From Candidatus Hodarchaeum mangrovi (GTDB lineage: Archaea > Asgardarchaeota > Heimdallarchaeia > Hodarchaeales > Hodarchaeaceae): a stretch of 10,552 nucleotides of DNA. The stretch's first letter is position 1, and each line of letters opens with the position of its first letter. The notes beneath the pieces were generated by a model that was given only the letters and a program-made list of their open reading frames with translations, was not told where the DNA came from and did not search any database. Below, in pieces: positions 1 to 10,469 of this stretch. The stretch covers positions 1-10,552 of the forward strand of contig JAEOUE010000100.1 of NCBI GenBank assembly GCA_016839515.1. The letters are read 5' to 3'. The position numbers and the translations under genes were made by a program.

Positions 1-1813
1 ATAATTTATCAGTAATTTCTTCACGAGGAATTATATGACTGATGGCATGTCTTACCCCTTTTTTATTTAAGTGGTAAATGCCTCCTTCTTCGAATTTAGG
101 ATTCATATAGAGAGATTGCCAACCAGATGCAGGTGTTAGAACAGGGGTAATAGTAGATGCAGCTTGGATTTCATCGAAAACATTTCTTAGCATATACCAT
201 GGATCAAGGATATCAACCATTCCTAATTTCATTTCAGCGATAGCAATATCCATGCCAGCCATAATTACTTTTGCAGATGTAGGCATAGCAAACCATTTAC
301 CTTCAGAAAACTCAAAGTATCTAAGGGATGTATTTGAAACCCAGGTTTTAGTTATGTGATCCCATTGTATCCCATCAAACTTCTCAAAAGTAATTTCATT
401 TTTAGTAGCATTATATTCTTTAAAAACTACGGGACCAGCTCCAATGGGTCCGTTTAAACCACCAGGATCAGAAGAATGACCAGTATTAAATGAGTGAGTT
501 GACCAATCCGATGGTTTACAGAGCCAGAGATTTGGATCAAAATTCCCACTTTTATCAAAACCATGGTTAACTGGATCACCAAGAATATGTTCAGGGAAAA
601 TACTAAAATCTAATACATCAGTTACAAAGGAGGGAAAAATAGTAACGAAATTAAAACTGATATGTTCAAAGAAACCATCATCATCTTTATCCTCAATAAT
701 AACAGAGTAATTCCCCCGATGATTGACTTTATCATCTAAACCAAACGGGAGAATCCATTCAGCCCATAATTCATCCGAATTACTACCACTTTTTTTACTT
801 AAAGTGGGAATTAGTTTAACTTGCAGAGAAAATGCGACATCCCACCCATCGAGCTGATGACCATCATGAAAAAAGACATTATCACATAATGTAATGTTAT
901 ACTGTAGCCCATTATTAGAATAATTACCTCTTTCTGTGGCAATCCTTGGAATAACTTTTAGATATTCCGTCGTACCAAAATTGGTGGTCATCCAAGCTTC
1001 ACGATCTGTATTCATAGGTAAAACAAGGTATTTTGAAGGAGTATGTTGAACTAGACCAGCCATTGATGAACCTACACTGTATATATCATAAATATTATCA
1101 GCAAATATTGGATTAAATGGAGGTCCACAGCCAGAAACTGCAAAAGTAACAGTGGGTCGGCCCCACATTGTGATAAGAGAATCGAAGGGGAAAAATACAG
1201 GATCATAACCATAAAGGGTAGAGGAAATCGCGTGCACGTCATATGGAGTGTAAACCACAATATGTGGTAAGACATCATACCAGATCTTCTGCCATTCAAC
1301 AAGTTGCATTCCTAATTCAGAACGATTGTAATTTGTCCTTATTCTTTGGATTAAATTATTCGACTCTTCAGCGCGGTATGTCATATAATGCTTGGATGGA
1401 TCATTAGCCCAGTACATTATATTAAACCCAGCTGGGGGGATGGCAGTAGTACCATAACCCCCTTGTAATCCATCACCAAGGTGTCTTATGGGACTTCCCA
1501 CCCCCGTTCCAAGAACAATAAGATCATAACCTCCATCTTTATAAGCACCAACTTCTTCTTTAATTGAACGGGGATAAAGAGTCGGCCAACCTACATAATC
1601 TAATTCAGCTTTGATACCTATTTTAGCAAATTCTGGAACCATCATTTGTTCCCAAAGTAATCGTAATGGTCCACTTATAGGTGCTAGCATATTAACAGAG
1701 AAGAAATAGTCCTGTCCAACTTCACCATGTGGAGTGATAATTAATGGACTTATTATAAAAGAGAAGTAAAATAATAGAAAAAAGAATCGTCTACATAAAG
1801 AATAAAAGCTCAT
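1..1813 (-). CDS. ABC transporter substrate-binding protein, family 5 (DppA/OppA-like), circularly permuted and divergent; 3' end runs off the window (at least 604 aa)
   Basis: Manual minus-strand translation from ATG 1813 (in-frame TGA just upstream at 1823-1825) is open to position 1: MSFYSLCRRFFFLLFYFSFIISPLII...FFSVNMLAP...EFAKIGIKAELDYVGW...YDL...EWQKIWYDVLPHIVVY...TVTFAVSG..PPFNP...IPRIA...YNITLCDNVFFHDGHQLDGWDVAFS...GPIGAGPVVF...VDILD...LYMNPK...GVRHAISHIIPREEI. It has family-5 SBP motifs (FHDG, PIGxGP, VRxAIS), a hydrophobic N-terminal signal/anchor and a GAAGGGA RBS-like motif upstream. It is probably absent from the ORF track because it has no stop in the window. Confidence 0.9.
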   Translation of the reverse strand, partial: MSFYSLCRRFFFLLFYFSFIISPLIITPHGEVGQDYFFSVNMLAPISGPLRLLWEQMMVPEFAKIGIKAELDYVGWPTLYPRSIKEEVGAYKDGGYDLIVLGTGVGSPIRHLGDGLQGGYGTTAIPPAGFNIMYWANDPSKHYMTYRAEESNNLIQRIRTNYNRSELGMQLVEWQKIWYDVLPHIVVYTPYDVHAISSTLYGYDPVFFPFDSLITMWGRPTVTFAVSGCGPPFNPIFADNIYDIYSVGSSMAGLVQHTPSKYLVLPMNTDREAWMTTNFGTTEYLKVIPRIATERGNYSNNGLQYNITLCDNVFFHDGHQLDGWDVAFSLQVKLIPTLSKKSGSNSDELWAEWILPFGLDDKVNHRGNYSVIIEDKDDDGFFEHISFNFVTIFPSFVTDVLDFSIFPEHILGDPVNHGFDKSGNFDPNLWLCKPSDWSTHSFNTGHSSDPGGLNGPIGAGPVVFKEYNATKNEITFEKFDGIQWDHITKTWVSNTSLRYFEFSEGKWFAMPTSAKVIMAGMDIAIAEMKLGMVDILDPWYMLRNVFDEIQAASTITPVLTPASGWQSLYMNPKFEEGGIYHLNKKGVRHAISHIIPREEITDKL

Positions 1814-3037: not shown

Positions 3038-4006
3038 TTATCGTGAATCAGTGGGATAAAAACAAGCTGTCCAGTGGTTTTTCCTTATTTCCTCTAATGG
3101 AGGTTCTTCCCGTGAACATTTTTCTTGAGCATATTTACAGCGTTTTACAAATCGACAGCATTTAGGAGGATCGATGGGAGTGGGTACTTCTCCAGTTAAC
3201 AATTCTCTTTTCTTCTTTGTTCTTGGATCAGGGATTGGAACAGAAGCAATTAAAGCTTCAGCATAAGGATGTTGGGGATAATCAAAAAGATCATTAATTT
3301 CTCCTAGTTCTACAATTTGTCCGAGATACATTACACCTACCCTATTACAAACATGTCTGACTACTGAAAGATCATGTGAAATGAAGATATATGTAAGAGC
3401 AAATTCTTTCTGTAGTTTTTCAAGTAAATTTAAGACTTGTGCTCGAACTGAAACATCTAATGCTGAAACTGGTTCATCCATAATTAAAATATCAGGTTCG
3501 ACGGCTAAAGCTCTTGCGATAACTACCCTCTGTCGTTGTCCTCCAGAAAATTCATGTGGATATCTATATAAATGAAATGGGGCTAATCCAACAGTTTCCA
3601 TAAGCTGAAGAATTCGTTTTTTCTTTTTCTTCCCTTTAATTAATTTGTGAATATCAAGAGGTTCACCAATAATATCATAAACTGTCATTCTGGGATTTAA
3701 TGATGAGTATGGGTCTTGGAATATCAATTGAATTCTTCTACGCATTTGGGTTTTTTTATTTCTAAAAATATCCTTACCATCAAAAAGTATCCTCCCTGAT
3801 GTTGGAAAGAGTAGCTTTAAAATTAATTTTGCAACTGTAGTTTTTCCACACCCTGACTCTCCAACTAATCCAAATGTTTCTCCTTTATTAACAGTAAAGT
3901 TTACATTATCAACAGCATGAATAAAAGAGCCGCTTCGAGTACCAAAAATTCCCATTTGAACTGGAAATTTCTTTGTCAGATTCTCTAATCTAAGAATTTC
4001 ATTCAT
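3038..4006 (-). CDS. dppF: Dipeptide/oligopeptide ABC transporter ATP-binding subunit (DppF/OppF)
   Basis: Walker A GESGCGKT, Q-loop IFQDPYSSLNPR, signature FSGGQRQR, Walker B ILIMDEP, H-loop ISHD, C-terminal HPY domain with Cys cluster. Start re-called to ATG 4006 (MNEILRLENL) because AGAGGGA lies just upstream, overlapping the dppD stop. Confidence 0.95.
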   Translation of the reverse strand: MNEILRLENLTKKFPVQMGIFGTRSGSFIHAVDNVNFTVNKGETFGLVGESGCGKTTVAKLILKLLFPTSGRILFDGKDIFRNKKTQMRRRIQLIFQDPYSSLNPRMTVYDIIGEPLDIHKLIKGKKKKKRILQLMETVGLAPFHLYRYPHEFSGGQRQRVVIARALAVEPDILIMDEPVSALDVSVRAQVLNLLEKLQKEFALTYIFISHDLSVVRHVCNRVGVMYLGQIVELGEINDLFDYPQHPYAEALIASVPIPDPRTKKKRELLTGEVPTPIDPPKCCRFVKRCKYAQEKCSREEPPLEEIRKNHWTACFYPTDSR

Positions 4007-4016
4007 TATATTCCCT

Positions 4017-5045
4017 CTAACTATAGAGATGACACCGAACAAAATGACGAGGAGCTATCTCTAATCTTTTAGGAACCTCTTTGCTACATATATCCATTAC
4101 ATCTTTGCAGCGTGGATGGAATCTACATCCAGATGGAGGATTAATTAAATTTGGGATAGAACCTTTAATAACTTCGAGATGATCAAGCTTTCGATCTACT
4201 CTTGGTATTGAAGATAATAAATCTCGTGTATAGGGATGTGCCGGATTCACGAAACATTCTAAACAAGAGTTTTCTTCAACAATATATCCTGCATACATTA
4301 CTGCTACACGATCAGCTATTTCTGCAACAACGGCAAAATTATGTGTTATATAAAGAACAGCGGTATTATATTTCTGCTTTAATTTATCTATTAAATAAAG
4401 TACTTGAGCTTGAATTGTAACATCAAGTGCTGTTGTAGGCTCATCAGCTATGAGTAAAGATGGTCGACAAGAAAGAGCAATTGCTATCATGATTCTTTGT
4501 CGCATACCACCGGAAAATTGATGAGGAAAATCTTGTGAACGTTTTTCTGCATCAGGTATTCCTACTTCTTTCATCATTCTTATAGCTTCAGTTTTTGCTT
4601 CATTTGGATCTAATTTTTGATGAACCCTTAAATTTTCAGCAATTTGGTCAGCTACTGAATAAAGAGGATTCAAAGATGTCATTGGATCTTGAAAGATCAT
4701 TGATATATTTCCCCCACGAACTATACGCATCTCTTTATTTGAAAATTGTAATAAATCCTTAGTTTTAAATAAAATGGATCCACTGATAATTTTTGCAGGG
4801 GGAATCGGTAATAATTGTATAATAGAAAGTGCTGAAACAGTTTTTCCTGATCCTGATTCTCCAATTAAGCCTAATGTTTCTCCTTTCTTAATATCTAAGT
4901 CAATACCCTCGACGGCCTTAACTATGCCCTCCTCAGTGTAAAAATATACTTTTAAATTTCTTATCTTAACAAGAAATTCACTTTCTCTTTCGATGGTATT
5001 AACCAGATCTTTTTCTGAGAAATTTGAATCCAAATGTGATACCAA
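4017..5045 (-). CDS. dppD: Dipeptide/oligopeptide ABC transporter ATP-binding subunit (DppD/OppD)
   Basis: Walker [53 protein letters not shown] and [12 protein letters not shown] tail. Start uncertain: TTG 5045 or TTG 5033, with no clear RBS. Confidence 0.95.
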
Positions 5046-5182
5046 CGTTTAATTAGATATTCTTGTATCGGATTTTAAATTATGTATTTAATCTCTTTCT
5101 TCTATTCATCTGTATTGTTATAAAAAGAAGACAAATCTCTTTGGTTTTGTAGAAATTAAAAATAAAAGACTTATTACATTAT

Positions 5183-5257
5183 TTCAAATTAATTTGAATC
5201 TCAATTTTTAATTTTTTAATAATATTCTCACAAAAACGTTATTCAAATTCCTTTGAA
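5183..5257. promoter_or_regulatory. Pair of TTCAAA-N4-TTTGAA palindromes (5183-5198 and 5242-5257), putative transcription-factor sites
   Basis: TTCAAATTAATTTGAA (perfect 16-bp palindrome) and TTCAAATTCCTTTGAA, 59 bp apart in the dppD/dppA divergent intergenic region. Confidence 0.55.
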
Positions 5258-5413
5258 CATATGTAGAGTAAAATCTAAGCGTCTTTAATTTCAATCATCT
5301 GGTTAATGAATATTATCGCTTAATTAACGTAGAAAACACAAAATATGATTTTTTAAGGAAATTATTTTCGTTGACTTGATATAAATGTTTAAAAACGTTT
5401 CAGTGGAAGTAGC

Positions 5414-5474
5414 AACTTGTTTTTGAAAATCAGAATAATTTTCTTTTTATTGTAACTGGTTTTCGAAAATCAGA
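5414..5474. promoter_or_regulatory. Tandem 21-bp direct repeat with palindromic core, putative operator pair for dppA
   Basis: AACTTGTTTTTGAAAATCAGA (5414-5434) and AACTGGTTTTCGAAAATCAGA (5454-5474): 19/21 identical with a 40-bp period. The copy-2 core CTGGTTTTCGAAAATCAG is palindromic except for one base pair. Confidence 0.65.
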
Positions 5475-5478
5475 TTCT

Positions 5479-5484
5479 AGGAGA
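5479..5484 (+). promoter_or_regulatory. Ribosome-binding site of dppA
   Basis: AGGAGA 8 nt upstream of the TTG start at 5493. Confidence 0.7.
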
Positions 5485-5492
5485 ATTTTAAT

Positions 5493-7271
5493 TTGAATAA
5501 TACAAAATTTAAACTTCTGGTATTAACATTAATTCTAGGATTGTTCTTTGCAAGTTTACCACTCCCCGCACTTGCTGCAGAGGAATTATCACTGGAATTA
5601 TGGTATATGCCAGTAAAACGACCATATTTTCCTGACGCTAAAACAGTCGCGGAATTTATGCAAGCTGACCTTAGCAAAATAGGAATTACAACAACTCTAA
5701 AAACTTTTGATTGGAGTGAATATCTGGAAAGAACAGAAGCTGGTGAGCATGACATGTGTCTTCTTGGTTGGAGTGCTGATCTTGCGGATCCAGATAACTT
5801 TATGTATGTATTATTGCATGTGGATACAGCTACAGTAGGAAGTGCAGGTAATGTTGCTTTTTATAACAATTCTGAAGTCAACGCTTTACTTACTGAAGCT
5901 CAGCAAACCACTGATTTGGCAACAAGAACGAAAAATTATAAAGATGCTCAATGGTTAGTTCATAAGGATTCACCATGGGTTACTGTAGCTCATTCTCAAA
6001 ACCTCGCAGCATATTTGAGTAGTGTCTCTGGATTTCAAACCCATCCGACTGGTTCAGGAACTAATGTTTTTGCTAATGTTACTAAATCCGGTTCTACAAC
6101 CTTAACAATAGGCCGTGTTGGTGATTCGGATAGCCTTGACCCAGCAGAACCAACTGATGGGCAATCATTTAAAGTTATGAGACAAATATTTGATGGTTTA
6201 TACAATCTTCCAGCAGGTTCCACTATTCCTGAACCTGGACTAGCTACAAGCTATACTACATCTGCTGATCTACTTGAATGGACCTTTACTTTACGTCAGG
6301 GTGTCAAATTCCATGATGGAACCCCATTTAATGCCTCAGCTGTTGTATTTAGTTTTGAACGTGCACAAGCCTGGGCGGATAATACCTCTACATACTACAT
6401 AAATGGATGGACTCCGCCAGAAGCTGGTTATATTGACTGGATTTTTGGTGGTGTAAATGTAAACATTTCTCAAGTTGACACTTATACTGTGAAATTTACT
6501 TTAGACGCGAAATACGCACCATTCTTTAATACAATGGCAATTCCTCCTTTTGCAATAGTAAGTCCAACATATGTCAAAGCTCATAATGGAACCACGAACT
6601 TAGATCGTTTGGGTCTTAATCCAGTTGGTACTGGTCCTTATAAGTTTGTAAGCTGGGAACAAGAACAAACAATTACTCTAATAAAGAATGACGATTTCTG
6701 GGGTACCGCTACTGGGGCTAATACCCTAATATTTAAACATATTGAAGAAGAAGCTACAGCTATTATCGAAATAACTGCAGGAACACCCACAATTGATATT
6801 CTTGATGATTTTTCAGGAACTAATGTGCCAGCAATAGAAGCAGCTAGCGGAGTAAATATGTTCACTCAACCTGGAATGAATATTGGTTATTTAGCGATGA
6901 ATGCTCTCCGTTATCCATTTAATAATACTGAAGCAGTCGATGATCCAGATTTCGGAGGACAAACAACCCATGCCTCTTTAGTACGTCGAGCTTTCCATTA
7001 TGCAATTAATCGAAGTGCAATTATTGAAAACGCATACGGTGGATATGCAGTTCAGGCTAAAAATCCATTCCCACCAAGTATCTGGGGTTATAATGATACA
7101 ATAGAAGATTATAAATTTGATCCCGACCATGCCCGAGATATATTAAAATCTCTTGGGTATGCAGTTAAAGGTGGAAGACCAGCAGGACCTGATGCTATTA
7201 CTGCATTAATAACGGCCTTAGGTGGATTTATAGTTCTAACAATCCTCTTCAGTAATAGAAGGAAGAAATAA
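5493..7271 (+). CDS. dppA: Dipeptide ABC transporter substrate-binding protein (DppA-like), circularly permuted, with Sec signal peptide and C-terminal membrane anchor
   Basis: Signal peptide ending ...LPALA. DppA motifs LWYMPVKRPY, GWSADLADPDNF, TLRQGVKFHDG, NPVGTGPY, PGMNIGYL, VRRA, KNPFPPSIWGYND and YKFDPD. C-terminal hydrophobic helix followed by RRKK. Confidence 0.93.
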   Translation: MNNTKFKLLVLTLILGLFFASLPLPALAAEELSLELWYMPVKRPYFPDAKTVAEFMQADLSKIGITTTLKTFDWSEYLERTEAGEHDMCLLGWSADLADPDNFMYVLLHVDTATVGSAGNVAFYNNSEVNALLTEAQQTTDLATRTKNYKDAQWLVHKDSPWVTVAHSQNLAAYLSSVSGFQTHPTGSGTNVFANVTKSGSTTLTIGRVGDSDSLDPAEPTDGQSFKVMRQIFDGLYNLPAGSTIPEPGLATSYTTSADLLEWTFTLRQGVKFHDGTPFNASAVVFSFERAQAWADNTSTYYINGWTPPEAGYIDWIFGGVNVNISQVDTYTVKFTLDAKYAPFFNTMAIPPFAIVSPTYVKAHNGTTNLDRLGLNPVGTGPYKFVSWEQEQTITLIKNDDFWGTATGANTLIFKHIEEEATAIIEITAGTPTIDILDDFSGTNVPAIEAASGVNMFTQPGMNIGYLAMNALRYPFNNTEAVDDPDFGGQTTHASLVRRAFHYAINRSAIIENAYGGYAVQAKNPFPPSIWGYNDTIEDYKFDPDHARDILKSLGYAVKGGRPAGPDAITALITALGGFIVLTILFSNRRKK

Positions 7272-7305
7272 CCTTTTTATTCCCCCTCTTCTTTTTTTTC
7301 TTTTT
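7272..7305 (+). terminator. Oligo-T (archaeal-type) terminator candidate after dppA
   Basis: Pyrimidine tract with T5, T8 and T5 runs immediately after the TAA. No strong hairpin is visible. Confidence 0.55.
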
Positions 7306-7345
7306 AATATATAAATCAACAATCCTCCTTCTTTGAATCGTCTTC

Positions 7346-8416
7346 TTAAGTTTCGTAGGTTAAAATAAAACGTTCTACCTGTTTAATGGATTGTATTCGG
7401 ATAAAATGTTTAACGAGGAGATAAAATTTACTGATAAATGCTAATATAAAAAAAGTAATAAAATAATACTTGAATTCTGTATAGATAGACAGAAGCCATA
7501 TGTTATTAAATGATACAATAGAAAGAAATGAGTTAATCAATCCCCAAAAAGCTAAGGCAATAAAACTATCTGGATTTTCCCAAAGAAAATTATAATGAAC
7601 CAAATTAAAGAAAGAAATGAGGCCAGTTTCTAAAATCACGAAAATACCTATAGGGAATGCGAGAATTAAAATTGCAGGAATATTAACGCTAAAATTCTGT
7701 TTAATTCTGATCTGTTTTACGAATGCAATCAAATGATTCTCCGAGGTTTGATATAATTCACCTATTAGGATAAATGGTAAAAAAAGTTCAACAAAAACAA
7801 TGATATTAACTATCATAGGAAGAATTACCTGAAGGAGTAGAGGGAAAATAATCATTATTACCACAGGATAATTTAATGATCCTTCCTTGAATGAATCAAA
7901 GGCATTTGAAAGAATTGAATGTTGTTTATCAGAGAATCGAAGGATTAATTTTTCTTTCAAAATCACTTGTTTTATAAAAATAAGAAAAAAGAACAGAATT
8001 AGAAAATAAAAATAGCTAAATAATTCAAAGAAATCTAAATTTTCAAATATTTGAACTAAATTTTGAAGAGAAATTCCTTTCAAAATGAAAATAACTGCTT
8101 GATCACCATAAGCGATCATTAATACAAATAAGGTGAATCCCAATCCTGTAAGAATTGATATCAGTTTTATCAGTTGAATTTGGAAAATTTCTTTCCTTTT
8201 TATTGTTGGAGATAGGAGAAAGTAAATAAAAAATAGTAAAATGGCTATAAAATATAAGAAATAGAATGAAATCCAATTAGAAGTAATAAAGAAGATATAA
8301 AAAAAGATTATGAGGATTATGATACTAGAAAAGACGATGGTCATTTCAATGATTTTAAATTTCACCGAATTTTTCTGAACCTCTGGGACTATGGTTTCGG
8401 AGTGTTGATTTGCCAT
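7346..8416 (-). CDS. Hypothetical multi-pass membrane protein (roughly 8-9 hydrophobic segments by eye)
   Basis: 356-codon open frame despite very AT-rich DNA. F/I/L-rich segments. ATG preceded by AAGGTGAT. Starts 19 nt after the dppC stop. No family motif recognised. Confidence 0.75.
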   Translation of the reverse strand: MANQHSETIVPEVQKNSVKFKIIEMTIVFSSIIILIIFFYIFFITSNWISFYFLYFIAILLFFIYFLLSPTIKRKEIFQIQLIKLISILTGLGFTLFVLMIAYGDQAVIFILKGISLQNLVQIFENLDFFELFSYFYFLILFFFLIFIKQVILKEKLILRFSDKQHSILSNAFDSFKEGSLNYPVVIMIIFPLLLQVILPMIVNIIVFVELFLPFILIGELYQTSENHLIAFVKQIRIKQNFSVNIPAILILAFPIGIFVILETGLISFFNLVHYNFLWENPDSFIALAFWGLINSFLSIVSFNNIWLLSIYTEFKYYFITFFILAFISKFYLLVKHFIRIQSIKQVERFILTYET

Positions 8417-8424
8417 ATTTTATC

Positions 8425-8432
8425 ATCACCTT
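8425..8432 (-). promoter_or_regulatory. Archaeal-type ribosome-binding site of the membrane-protein gene
   Basis: Minus-strand AAGGTGAT, 8 nt upstream of ATG 8416. Confidence 0.7.
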
Positions 8433-8435
8433 CTT

Positions 8436-9380
8436 TTACTTTTTAAATCTAGGATCAAATGCTTCTCGTAAACCATCGCCTACTAAATTAAATGATATTA
8501 CTGTTAATAGAATTGCCATTCCAGGGAAAAAAGTTAAGTGAGGTGCAGCAGCAAAAAATTTCCTTCCATCTCCAATCATGGAACCCCACTCAGCGGTTGG
8601 AGCTTGAGCGCCTAATCCAAGAAAACTTAACGCAGCAACTTCCAAAATAGCAGTTCCTACTCCTAAAGTAGAATAGACAATTAATACACCAAACACATTT
8701 GGAAGAATGTGTTGGGTTAAAATCCGTGGGGTTTTAGCTCCTAGAACCTTTGCTGCTTCAACATACATCAATTCACGTTCAACAAAAGTTTGACCTCTTA
8801 CAATTCGTGCATAATAGGGGATATAAACAATGCCCACAGCGAGCATTGCATTTTCTAAACTGCTTCCCATTAATGATAATATCGCTAAAGCTAGTAATAT
8901 TGCTGGAAAAGCCAGTAACATCTCTAAACCCATTGAAATAATAGAATCAATCCAACTACCATAATATCCTGCTAGTAATCCAATTAATGTTCCCACTGAT
9001 AATGAAACAAAGACAGCTATAAAGCCTACTGTAATGGAAATACGAGCACCATAAATAATACGAACAAAAATATCACGTCCAACGTTATCTGTTCCAAAAA
9101 AATGCTTTGGTGATGGAGTTTGAAAACTTCTTGACACAGGATCGTTTGGGCCATAAGGAAAGATAGGAATGTTAAAAAAATTGAATAACATTTCATCGAG
9201 AAGTGATATAATTGCTAAAATAATAAAGAAACCTAAAATGCCTAATCCAACAAGTGCTGCTTGATTACGTCGAAATCTCTTGAAGATTACACTCCATGTT
9301 GTCGCTCCCGAAATTTCATCTAGTTTACTATCTGATTCATCTTCAAATTTCCCAATTTTAGCAACCTTAAGACTTCTCAT
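8436..9380 (-). CDS. dppC: Dipeptide/oligopeptide ABC transporter permease (DppC/OppC)
   Basis: N-terminal RFRRNQAAL, HFFGTDNVGRDIF, GARISITVG, EAA loop YVEAAKVLGA, HILPN, LSFLGLG, EWG and NLVGDGLREAFDPR. Starts 3 nt after the dppB stop. Confidence 0.95.
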   Translation of the reverse strand: MRSLKVAKIGKFEDESDSKLDEISGATTWSVIFKRFRRNQAALVGLGILGFFIILAIISLLDEMLFNFFNIPIFPYGPNDPVSRSFQTPSPKHFFGTDNVGRDIFVRIIYGARISITVGFIAVFVSLSVGTLIGLLAGYYGSWIDSIISMGLEMLLAFPAILLALAILSLMGSSLENAMLAVGIVYIPYYARIVRGQTFVERELMYVEAAKVLGAKTPRILTQHILPNVFGVLIVYSTLGVGTAILEVAALSFLGLGAQAPTAEWGSMIGDGRKFFAAAPHLTFFPGMAILLTVISFNLVGDGLREAFDPRFKK

Positions 9381-9383
9381 TGA

Positions 9384-10469
9384 TTAATCCCTCTTAAAAT
9401 ACCGTACTCTCGGATCCAAATAGGCATAGATAATGTCTGTTGCCATATTTGTAACGACAAATATGAAGGCACTAATCATGACGAATCCCATAATAACTGG
9501 GAAATCTCTATCTTGAATACTATTCCAAATATATCCTCCTACCCCTGGCCAAGAAAAAATAGTTTCAGTTAAAACTGCTCCTGCTAACAGTGCTCCAAAA
9601 TTTAAGCCAATTACTGTAATAGTTGGAATCATCGCATTTTTTGTAACATGTTTTACTATTACTAACCTTTCTTTAAGACCCTTTGAGCGAGCTGTTCTAA
9701 CATAATCTTTTCCAAGTTCCTCAAGCATACTAGATCGCATCATTCTAGCAATTACAGCTAAGGGAATAGTTGCTAATGCCAAAGAAGGTAAAACAAGATG
9801 GTTTGTTGCTGAAAGGAAATACTCCCAGTTACCTTCCATTATTCCTACTACAAAAGAATCAATAAGATAAAAATTTGTATATTTCGGAAGTGAAGCACTT
9901 AAATGGGAATCTATTCTATGTGTTGCTTCAAACCATCCGAGATTGTTAAAAAATACGCTTTGCAGCATTAATCCTAACCAATAAATTGGCATACTAACCC
10001 CCAATAATGCAATTATCATCGTAAGGTAATCTATTCGTGAGTGTTGTTTATAGGCTGATAATATTCCAATAGGAATTCCTGCAATTGTTGCAAGTAATAT
10101 TGATACTAATGTTAATTCAATCGTTGCAGGGAATCGAATTCCTAACTCATAAGCAACTGGAGTTGAAGAAATCATTGAAATTCCCAAATCAAATTCAAAA
10201 AGTAATTTTTGCATAAAAATTAAATATTGCTCCCAAGCTGGCTTGTCTAAACCCCATTTTTGTCTAATTAATTCGAGTTTTTCAGGCCTAGGATCTTTTC
10301 CTGCTAATGTATTTGCAACATCCCCTGGAAGTAACCGGAATAGGATAAAAACAATAGTTGCCACCCCAATTAAAACTGGTATCGCCCTAAGGATACGTTT
10401 TATTGCAAATTTTAAAAAGTCAGTAGTTGTTTCAGTGGAGGATTCAATTTTTTCAGACATATTAACCAT
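9384..10469 (-). CDS. dppB: Dipeptide/oligopeptide ABC transporter permease (DppB/OppB)
   Basis: LPGD, WGLDKP, RFPATIEL, GVSMPIYWLG, HLVLP, EAA loop DYVRTARSKGL, ETIFSWPGVG, RDFPV and DIIYAYLDPRVR. The start could be ATG 10469 or ATG 10460. Confidence 0.95.
   Translation of the reverse strand: MVNMSEKIESSTETTTDFLKFAIKRILRAIPVLIGVATIVFILFRLLPGDVANTLAGKDPRPEKLELIRQKWGLDKPAWEQYLIFMQKLLFEFDLGISMISSTPVAYELGIRFPATIELTLVSILLATIAGIPIGILSAYKQHSRIDYLTMIIALLGVSMPIYWLGLMLQSVFFNNLGWFEATHRIDSHLSASLPKYTNFYLIDSFVVGIMEGNWEYFLSATNHLVLPSLALATIPLAVIARMMRSSMLEELGKDYVRTARSKGLKERLVIVKHVTKNAMIPTITVIGLNFGALLAGAVLTETIFSWPGVGGYIWNSIQDRDFPVIMGFVMISAFIFVVTNMATDIIYAYLDPRVRYFKRD

Follow-up and report, generated by a model that had tools for sequence, protein, structure and literature searches.

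At the left end of the window, a stretch of 10,552 nucleotides comprising the whole of contig C8 from the 4.0 Mb Candidatus Hodarchaeum mangrovi genome, the minus strand encodes a family-5 (OppA/DppA-type) solute-binding protein in which the last third of the chain now comes first (nt 2–1813; 604 codons, 3’ end open). Each block of this protein, referred to here as P1, is present once, the two are swapped, and both derive from one ancestor, which makes P1 a circularly permuted protein. Because its segment order is non-canonical, with residues equivalent to 344–507 of mature E. coli DppA (the numbering used for all comparisons) placed before those equivalent to 1–343, P1 is a variant of the family-5, or cluster C, solute-binding proteins and no ordinary member. 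The permutation is real and conserved. In the explanation that, taken whole, we consider highly probable, P1 is a genuine protein of an old permuted clade, other proteins reached the same cut through separate events at the same loop, and the likely role of P1 is oligopeptide uptake via an Opp-type importer. Named homologs carry the labels Hodarchaeales, Hodarchaeota, Heimdallarchaeota and Promethearchaeota.

The P1 chain begins with a signal-like segment (residues 1–33, nt 1715–1813, minus strand) that has a hydrophobic core from residue 10, a hydropathy of 2.45 over 17 residues and a helix at residues 3–25 in the structural model. The normally C-terminal block follows (residues 34–219, nt 1157–1714; DppA 344–507), with the motifs DYFFSVN at residue 35 (nt 1711–1691) and LYGYDP at residue 200, and with the conserved residues Arg51 and Trp76. 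The old C-terminus meets the old N-terminus at residues 217–221 (nt 1151–1165), a junction defined by profile boundaries and by bridging contigs, and the motif positions match the switch at residues 218–221 (nt 1151–1162) first proposed from the sequence. The normally N-terminal block (residues 220–604, nt 2–1156; DppA 1 to ~295) was assigned from Pfam, profiles and the model, and carries family-specific insertions; its motifs are PTVTFAVSG at residue 220 (nt 1156–1130), FFHDG at 314, PIGAGP at 456 and VRHAIS at 587. Pfam family PF00496 matched P1 above its cut-off (72.9 bits against 32.4; E 3.6e-20), with residues 286–604 covering model positions 1–235. In profile–profile alignments, residues 33–219 fell on DppA 340–507 (probability 93%, E 4.4e-8) and residues 220–636 of a longer form on DppA 1–334 (probability 99.8%). 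A profile of the P1 family (38 members) gave the same swapped order against AppA, positions 37–202 aligning with AppA 360–502 and positions 286–412 with AppA 58–166.

Two structural models agreed with the profiles. The AlphaFold2 model of the 636-aa form of P1 had a pLDDT of 89.7, and its residues 220–633 superposed on DppA 1–323 (Z 20.1, rmsd 6.3, 307 aligned). Folded alone (pLDDT 81), residues 32–219 matched family-5 proteins over their last third in ranks 1–48 of 50 rows; the best match had Z 9.3 (rmsd 5.7, 162 aligned), and scores were middling (Z 6–9) with the rows unanimous. All segments of the three-domain fold are present, as judged from both block models and, for the final helix, from a paralog and flanking contigs. 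In both blocks the fold is that of the canonical B. subtilis AppA (1XOC), C. jejuni NikZ (4OET), E. coli DppA (1DPP, 1DPE, 8Z1Z) and OppA (1OLA, 3TCF), with which P1 also shares a PF00496 score above the cut-off and the Trp at DppA 386. In contrast to these, P1 has ~20% identity, large insertions and no DppA dipeptide motif, and its order is 344–507 then 1–343, whereas all the listed solved chains are canonical; no solved structure of a permuted relative was present among the structure matches listed. The link at the junction has a median of 7 residues in the P1 family (46 rows) and medians of 4–7 across permuted groups, and the cut loop varies in length among canonical family-5 proteins.

The contig stops within the gene, in a repeat that P1 has in common with a paralog on contig C143. 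The break is a collapsed repeat: the window starts with it (nt 1–127), the terminal sequence common to C8 and C143 is exactly 127 bases long, and the other end of C143 likewise has 127 bases in common with the start of C264. In run X8 the repeat forms a 341-base record and in run X3 it extends over 472 bases, where depth is 15.2 compared with 9.2 next to it. At both the far end of C143 and the start of C264, the encoded final helix is followed by a Thr-rich stalk, a membrane helix, a basic tail and a stop codon. In another assembly P1 is longer by 32 residues with one difference, and the C143 paralog is whole (718 aa) with the same end as C264. P1 would continue into the far end of C143, forming a tandem pair of paralogs, and would reach a whole length of ~720 aa, with a membrane anchor of its own predicted from the C143 and C264 ends. 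Such an ending, a helix followed by a short stalk, a membrane anchor and a basic tail, closes the whole homologs of P1, in keeping with the terminus that the earlier note had proposed to look for.

That P1 might be an assembly chimera, a partial duplication or a decaying pseudogene is hardly credible, even though its contig breaks off within the gene, in the repeat common to it and the paralog, and the source genome carries 6% contamination. The junction is bridged by single contigs in runs X3 (possibly the source), X5 and X14 with 0–2 differences, run X8 having no coverage of it. The permuted order was found in 51 of 56 P1-family matches, from many assemblies, the other five being partial, and a second C-terminal block, the sign of a partial duplication, in none (0/56); the same scoring called 202 of 202 canonical relatives canonical. 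The portion of P1 left unseen amounts to ~94 bases and is therefore too small for a second 165-residue C-terminal block. The model is a confident single chain, and decay is ruled out by a dN/dS of ~0.29 between P1 and its paralog and by retention of 88% of 217 conserved columns. P1 appears to be under purifying selection and to carry a recent conversion tract, because dN is 0.27 and dS 0.94 and yet the last 42 codons of the pair are identical. The 3’ ~340 bases are identical in P1 and its tandem paralog despite synonymous sites that are near saturation elsewhere; the identical tract, likely a recent gene conversion, spans about DppA 262–343 and reaches the cut site.

A second permuted binding protein, the DppA-like P2, is encoded on the plus strand of the window (nt 5493–7271), with its junction near nt 6069–6101 and a C-terminal membrane anchor at nt 7194–7250. 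The breakpoints of P1 and P2 are equivalent, their profile boundaries being the same within a few residues, and the two sequences are very dissimilar (best BLAST E 1.2, not significant), both as the earlier note had it. Its description of P2 as very close to bacterial DppA holds for the relationship but not for the closeness, as the nearest canonical relatives of P2 are 44–47% identical. Among the 120 P2 matches listed, the best 29 comprise 27 permuted and 2 partial proteins and the next 91 are canonical, the named canonical ones all being bacterial.

The remainder of the window holds a HAD-family hydrolase gene divergent from P1 (nt 2101–2886, plus), which had no match at E 1e-8 across 20 wide regions, and a dpp cluster (nt 3038–10469). 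On the minus strand the latter comprises genes for dppF-like (nt 3038–4042) and dppD-like (nt 4017–5045) ABC ATPases, assigned by motifs and cluster position and not by family scan, and for dppC-like (nt 8436–9380) and dppB-like (nt 9384–10469) permeases. The cluster is split, with minus-strand dppBC and dppDF on either side of plus-strand P2, and the layout in genome G010 is alike; P2 and the dppC-like and dppB-like genes form a block conserved there. A 356-aa membrane protein encoded between P2 and dppC (nt 7346–8416, minus) had no Pfam or NCBIfam match and has a counterpart in the same place in G010 (45% identity). The case for P1 as a conserved member of this cluster was weak, since the G010 gene lying 7 kb from the cluster has the flanks of the paralog on contig C331. 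A bacterial promoter scan, which is unsuited to archaea, returned 2 sites against 3.1 expected.

Nine family-5 frames were found in the source genome, and six are permuted: P1, P2 and the proteins on C119, C143 and C331 are cut at 343/344 and the C20 protein near 205, with canonical frames on C86, C108 (with an insertion) and C202. At E below 1e-100, P1-family members are present in 13 of the 24 genomes from the order, and the nearest matches outside the family are permuted Bathyarchaeia proteins of ~24% identity. For trees, blocks were put in canonical order by profile boundaries before alignment; a quick tree of 107 rows, hand-picked from 572 units to span groups, and a careful tree of 45 rows were built, both unrooted. 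P1 very probably sits in an old clade in which parsimony favours the permuted order as the ancestral one, with P2 and others of separate origin. The P1 family had support of 100/100 and fell within a 20-row clade (100/99), mostly permuted, of Asgard, Bathyarchaeia and a few bacterial proteins; a long stem (1.09) and sister-group support of 91/86 leave its exact place inside the clade weakly supported. P2 was placed among canonical DppA-like rows (100/98 in the 45-row tree), the C119 protein with its canonical sisters (100/100) and the G019:C267 protein with canonical Hodarchaeales proteins (100/100). The canonical sisters of the C119 and G019:C267 proteins are 64% and 45% identical to them. 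For C119, the best 5 of 120 listed matches are permuted (2 being itself) and the next two are canonical, 63–65% identical in both segments. The same-loop label changed 8 times on the tree (bootstrap 5–95% range 8–8), and the sequences thus compared suggest at least four origins of this cut, with L071, L092 and L093 as a fifth group outside that count.

A single ancient permutation, by which P1, P2 and all same-loop proteins would descend from one permuted archaeal ancestor, accounts for a breakpoint equal within a few residues and for the great frequency of the permuted order among Asgard and Bathyarchaeia matches. It is nevertheless very improbable, given that P2 is nested among canonical rows at 100/98, that AU tests rejected both P1 with P2 as one clade (p = 9.7e-5) and P2 with C119 (p = 1e-56), and that some same-loop proteins have canonical sisters 64% and 45% identical to them; trees built from each segment on its own gave the same groupings, with an old clade for P1 and a separate origin for P2. 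A rather unlikely alternative holds that the clade ancestor was canonical and that the P1 family was permuted in an event separate from those of the Bathyarchaeia and Heimdall permuted groups. The canonical rows P0094, P0119 and P0137 lie within the clade, separate origins are demonstrated elsewhere in the family, and recruitment with permuted queries under-samples canonical relatives and so favours a permuted ancestor in the parsimony count. Against it, that count was 7 changes (by hand, on the 45-row tree) for a canonical ancestor and 5 for a permuted one, the earliest branches of the 20-row clade are all permuted, and so are the nearest non-family matches of P1 at ~24% identity. The AU test also rejected the 14 permuted rows of the clade as a single group (p = 3.8e-8). 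On the preferred reading of an old permuted clade, the canonical proteins inside it are probable reversions. The earlier note had offered a lineage-wide, old permuted family or repeated permutation at one loop as alternatives, and both appear to be true, for different genes.

Four further cut points were found in the family, near DppA 170, 205, 270 and 394, and the clade of P1 contains, besides canonical proteins, cuts near 270, 170 and 394; a protein cut near 170 shares 58% identity with a same-loop protein. The earlier note had anticipated neither these cut points nor the reversions. The 138 further proteins among the best 150 profile matches fall into 91 that carry the same-loop cut, 10 the 270 cut and 2 the 170 cut; another 10 are canonical and 11 are partial, and the other 14 were short or went unscored. 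When named genomes were scanned with a Bathyarchaeia-type alignment, 58 loci turned up, in Bathyarchaeia, Asgard, Methanomethylicia and Methanofastidiosia and under a few bacterial labels; of the 57 frames scored, 53 are fully permuted and 4 are partial. A search of the phylum, scoring presence and not block order, matched 173 of 201 genomes, and in a broad alignment (A3) no region was sufficiently conserved to be used in scanning for loci. Head-to-tail fusions join two units cut at 270 in five frames and two same-loop units in one (G201:C30), and tandem arrays of family-5 genes also occur; none of the frames proved to be an intermediate carrying a duplicated block. L064 was considered as such an intermediate and ruled out, since it too is cut cleanly, near DppA 394. 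Frames that hold two permuted or four canonical units were noted in L077, L088, P0070, P0074, P0372, G201:C30 and P0090, and in G003 fifteen P1 matches, several as tandem pairs, point to a local family expansion.

P1 is probably a working extracellular binding protein, exported by means of its N-terminal signal and held at the membrane by a C-terminal helix. The short link joins its old termini, and the new ends lie in a domain III surface loop, between DppA 343 and 344. The models show that the two-lobed clamp is kept after re-cutting, and it presumably closes on ligand; it survives because a short link suffices for the old ends and the new ends lie where loop length varies. P1 probably inherited the permuted order from the old archaeal clade. 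According to the trees, separate events opened this loop in no fewer than three other lineages (P2, the C119 protein and G019:C267), and block order changed again inside the clade of P1. Permutation probably proceeded through tandem duplication, then head-to-tail fusion and trimming between signal and anchor, for which the fusions of permuted units, the tandem arrays and the conversion tract may represent the raw material. A gain of the C-terminal anchor was rejected as the general cause of permutation: the canonical sisters of C119, which lie in clusters with Asgard names, are already anchored, and anchorless permuted forms exist (P0091, P0185, P0186, L259 and L261), the anchor being present in 265 of 284 same-loop proteins. 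Shorter stalks in permuted forms were likewise unsupported (medians of 9–22 against 24.5 residues, with overlapping ranges).

Circular permutation by duplication then deletion is an established model, with the DNA amino-methyltransferases and saposin/swaposin as natural examples, and natural permutations are usually single old events. The family-5 proteins resemble these examples in a fold kept with new termini and in fused repeats as likely intermediates. They differ in that several cuts, the reuse of one loop and probable reversions occur within one transporter family, and in that permutation happens between a fixed signal and a fixed anchor. The layout of signal and anchor in P1 is like that of crenarchaeal OppA (Sulfolobus, Aeropyrum), for which PMC3387779 describes an N-terminal signal and a C-terminal membrane segment after a Ser/Thr-rich stretch. 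OppA of T. kodakarensis (7FI3), unlike P1, is in canonical order, its residues 522–745 aligning with the N-terminal block of P1. Among Asgard proteins, P1 shares family-5 membership, terminal membrane segments and N-glycosylation sites (6 sequons in the 604 residues of P1) with DSAG12_03090 of Promethearchaeum syntrophicum, a highly glycosylated family-5 binding protein according to PMC11284389, where the word stem ‘permut’ occurs 0 times. No literature on permuted family-5 binding proteins was found among the openly accessible papers searched. In this one genome, five same-loop proteins of apparently three origins coexist with one cut elsewhere and three canonical proteins, and the window itself adds two proteins 3.7 kb apart that would have reached the same cut by different routes. 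Sister pairs that are 64% identical and differ only in block order make the effect of permutation on folding, affinity and transport directly testable, and the tolerated cut sites are insertion points already at hand for peptide biosensors. Annotation by profiles scores permuted family-5 proteins too low or overlooks them; P1 is below all NCBIfam cut-offs, its best match being Opp4A at 48 bits against a cut-off of 650.

The function of P1 is probably ordinary nutrient uptake. The residues with which DppA binds dipeptides were not found in P1, which has Thr and Gly at the positions of DppA Trp405 and Asp408; its ligand class would follow from the fold alone because this motif is absent, and family-5 proteins also bind nickel, sugars and opines. 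P2, by comparison, keeps Arg355, Trp386, Trp405 and Asp408. The dipeptide-binding Arg355 and Asp408 of DppA correspond to R383 and D436 in PMC12136057. Arg51 of P1 lies near DppA 355 yet aligns off it. It is conserved in 33 of 38 family members and aligns with AppA position 373, where Arg is presumably a mark of AppA/Opp4A long-oligopeptide binding proteins. A peptide is the somewhat favoured ligand, and P1 most likely captures oligopeptides and not DppA-type dipeptides; longer peptides are the best guess because P1 lacks the dipeptide Arg/Asp and keeps Trp386 and the Arg at AppA 373.

P1 probably hands its ligand to an Opp-type importer encoded elsewhere, for which the operon on C301 would be the best candidate. 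No binding-protein gene was found on that contig. Its long DppC-type permease occurs in 7 of 24 genomes, all 7 among the 13 with the P1 family and none among the other 11 (0/11), and the operon lies 4–6 kb from a P1-family gene in G002, G010, G015 and G017; this synteny belongs to the C331 paralog and not to P1 itself. No C301-type permease was found in 6 of the 13 P1-family genomes, including ones that are 93–99% complete. In the wider clade, dppB or dppC is within 3 kb at 38 of 58 loci. The C301 permease itself (L167, nt 1240–2943 of that contig, minus strand; 567 aa) is DppC-like with an extra region of ~250 residues that has no NCBIfam match.

A ~980-aa FtsX-type permease lies within 4 kb at 7 of 18 wide P1-family loci, with an eighth at 8.7 kb, in two arrangements, with two paralogs that are 30–32% identical. 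In G011, G016, G018 and G019 the P1-family gene is co-directional with the permease, two ATPases and a beta-helix protein, and no C301-type permease was found in these four genomes. These loci could mean that P1-family proteins of some Hodarchaeales work with a type VII (FtsX/MacB-like) ABC system, or as surface receptors, instead of with an Opp-type importer, which we consider decidedly improbable: the linkage genomes are kin, amounting to about two independent events, the source genome had no match to the permease at E 1e-20, and type VII ABC systems are not known to use family-5-type binding proteins. The context is a lead only, because FtsX domains are common in these genomes (33–68 matches each). 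A broader proposal, also unlikely, would make the cut point adaptive and reversible. Anchored archaeal family-5 proteins would then be a circle re-cut by tandem arrays and gene conversion, and the domain III loop would be selected repeatedly, as the short tether shifts to the other lobe and changes the contact between clamp and transporter, some Hodarchaeales forms pairing with an FtsX/MacB-type ABC system instead of OppBC. The preferred reading for P1 is that of an oligopeptide-binding protein for an Opp-type importer.

P1-family genes beside the ~980-aa FtsX-type permease, usually with two ATPases, were recorded at L150, L153, L155, L156 and L159 and at L146, L157 and L160, and are either co-directional with it, a beta-helix gene lying between, or divergent from it. 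The gene for the C20 protein, cut near 205, is also divergent from an FtsX-type gene. Two permuted proteins of the archaeal clade bear bacterial labels (L259, Rhodospirillales; L261, Acetobacteraceae), are unanchored and have twin-arginine-like signals, and may possibly represent transfer from archaea.
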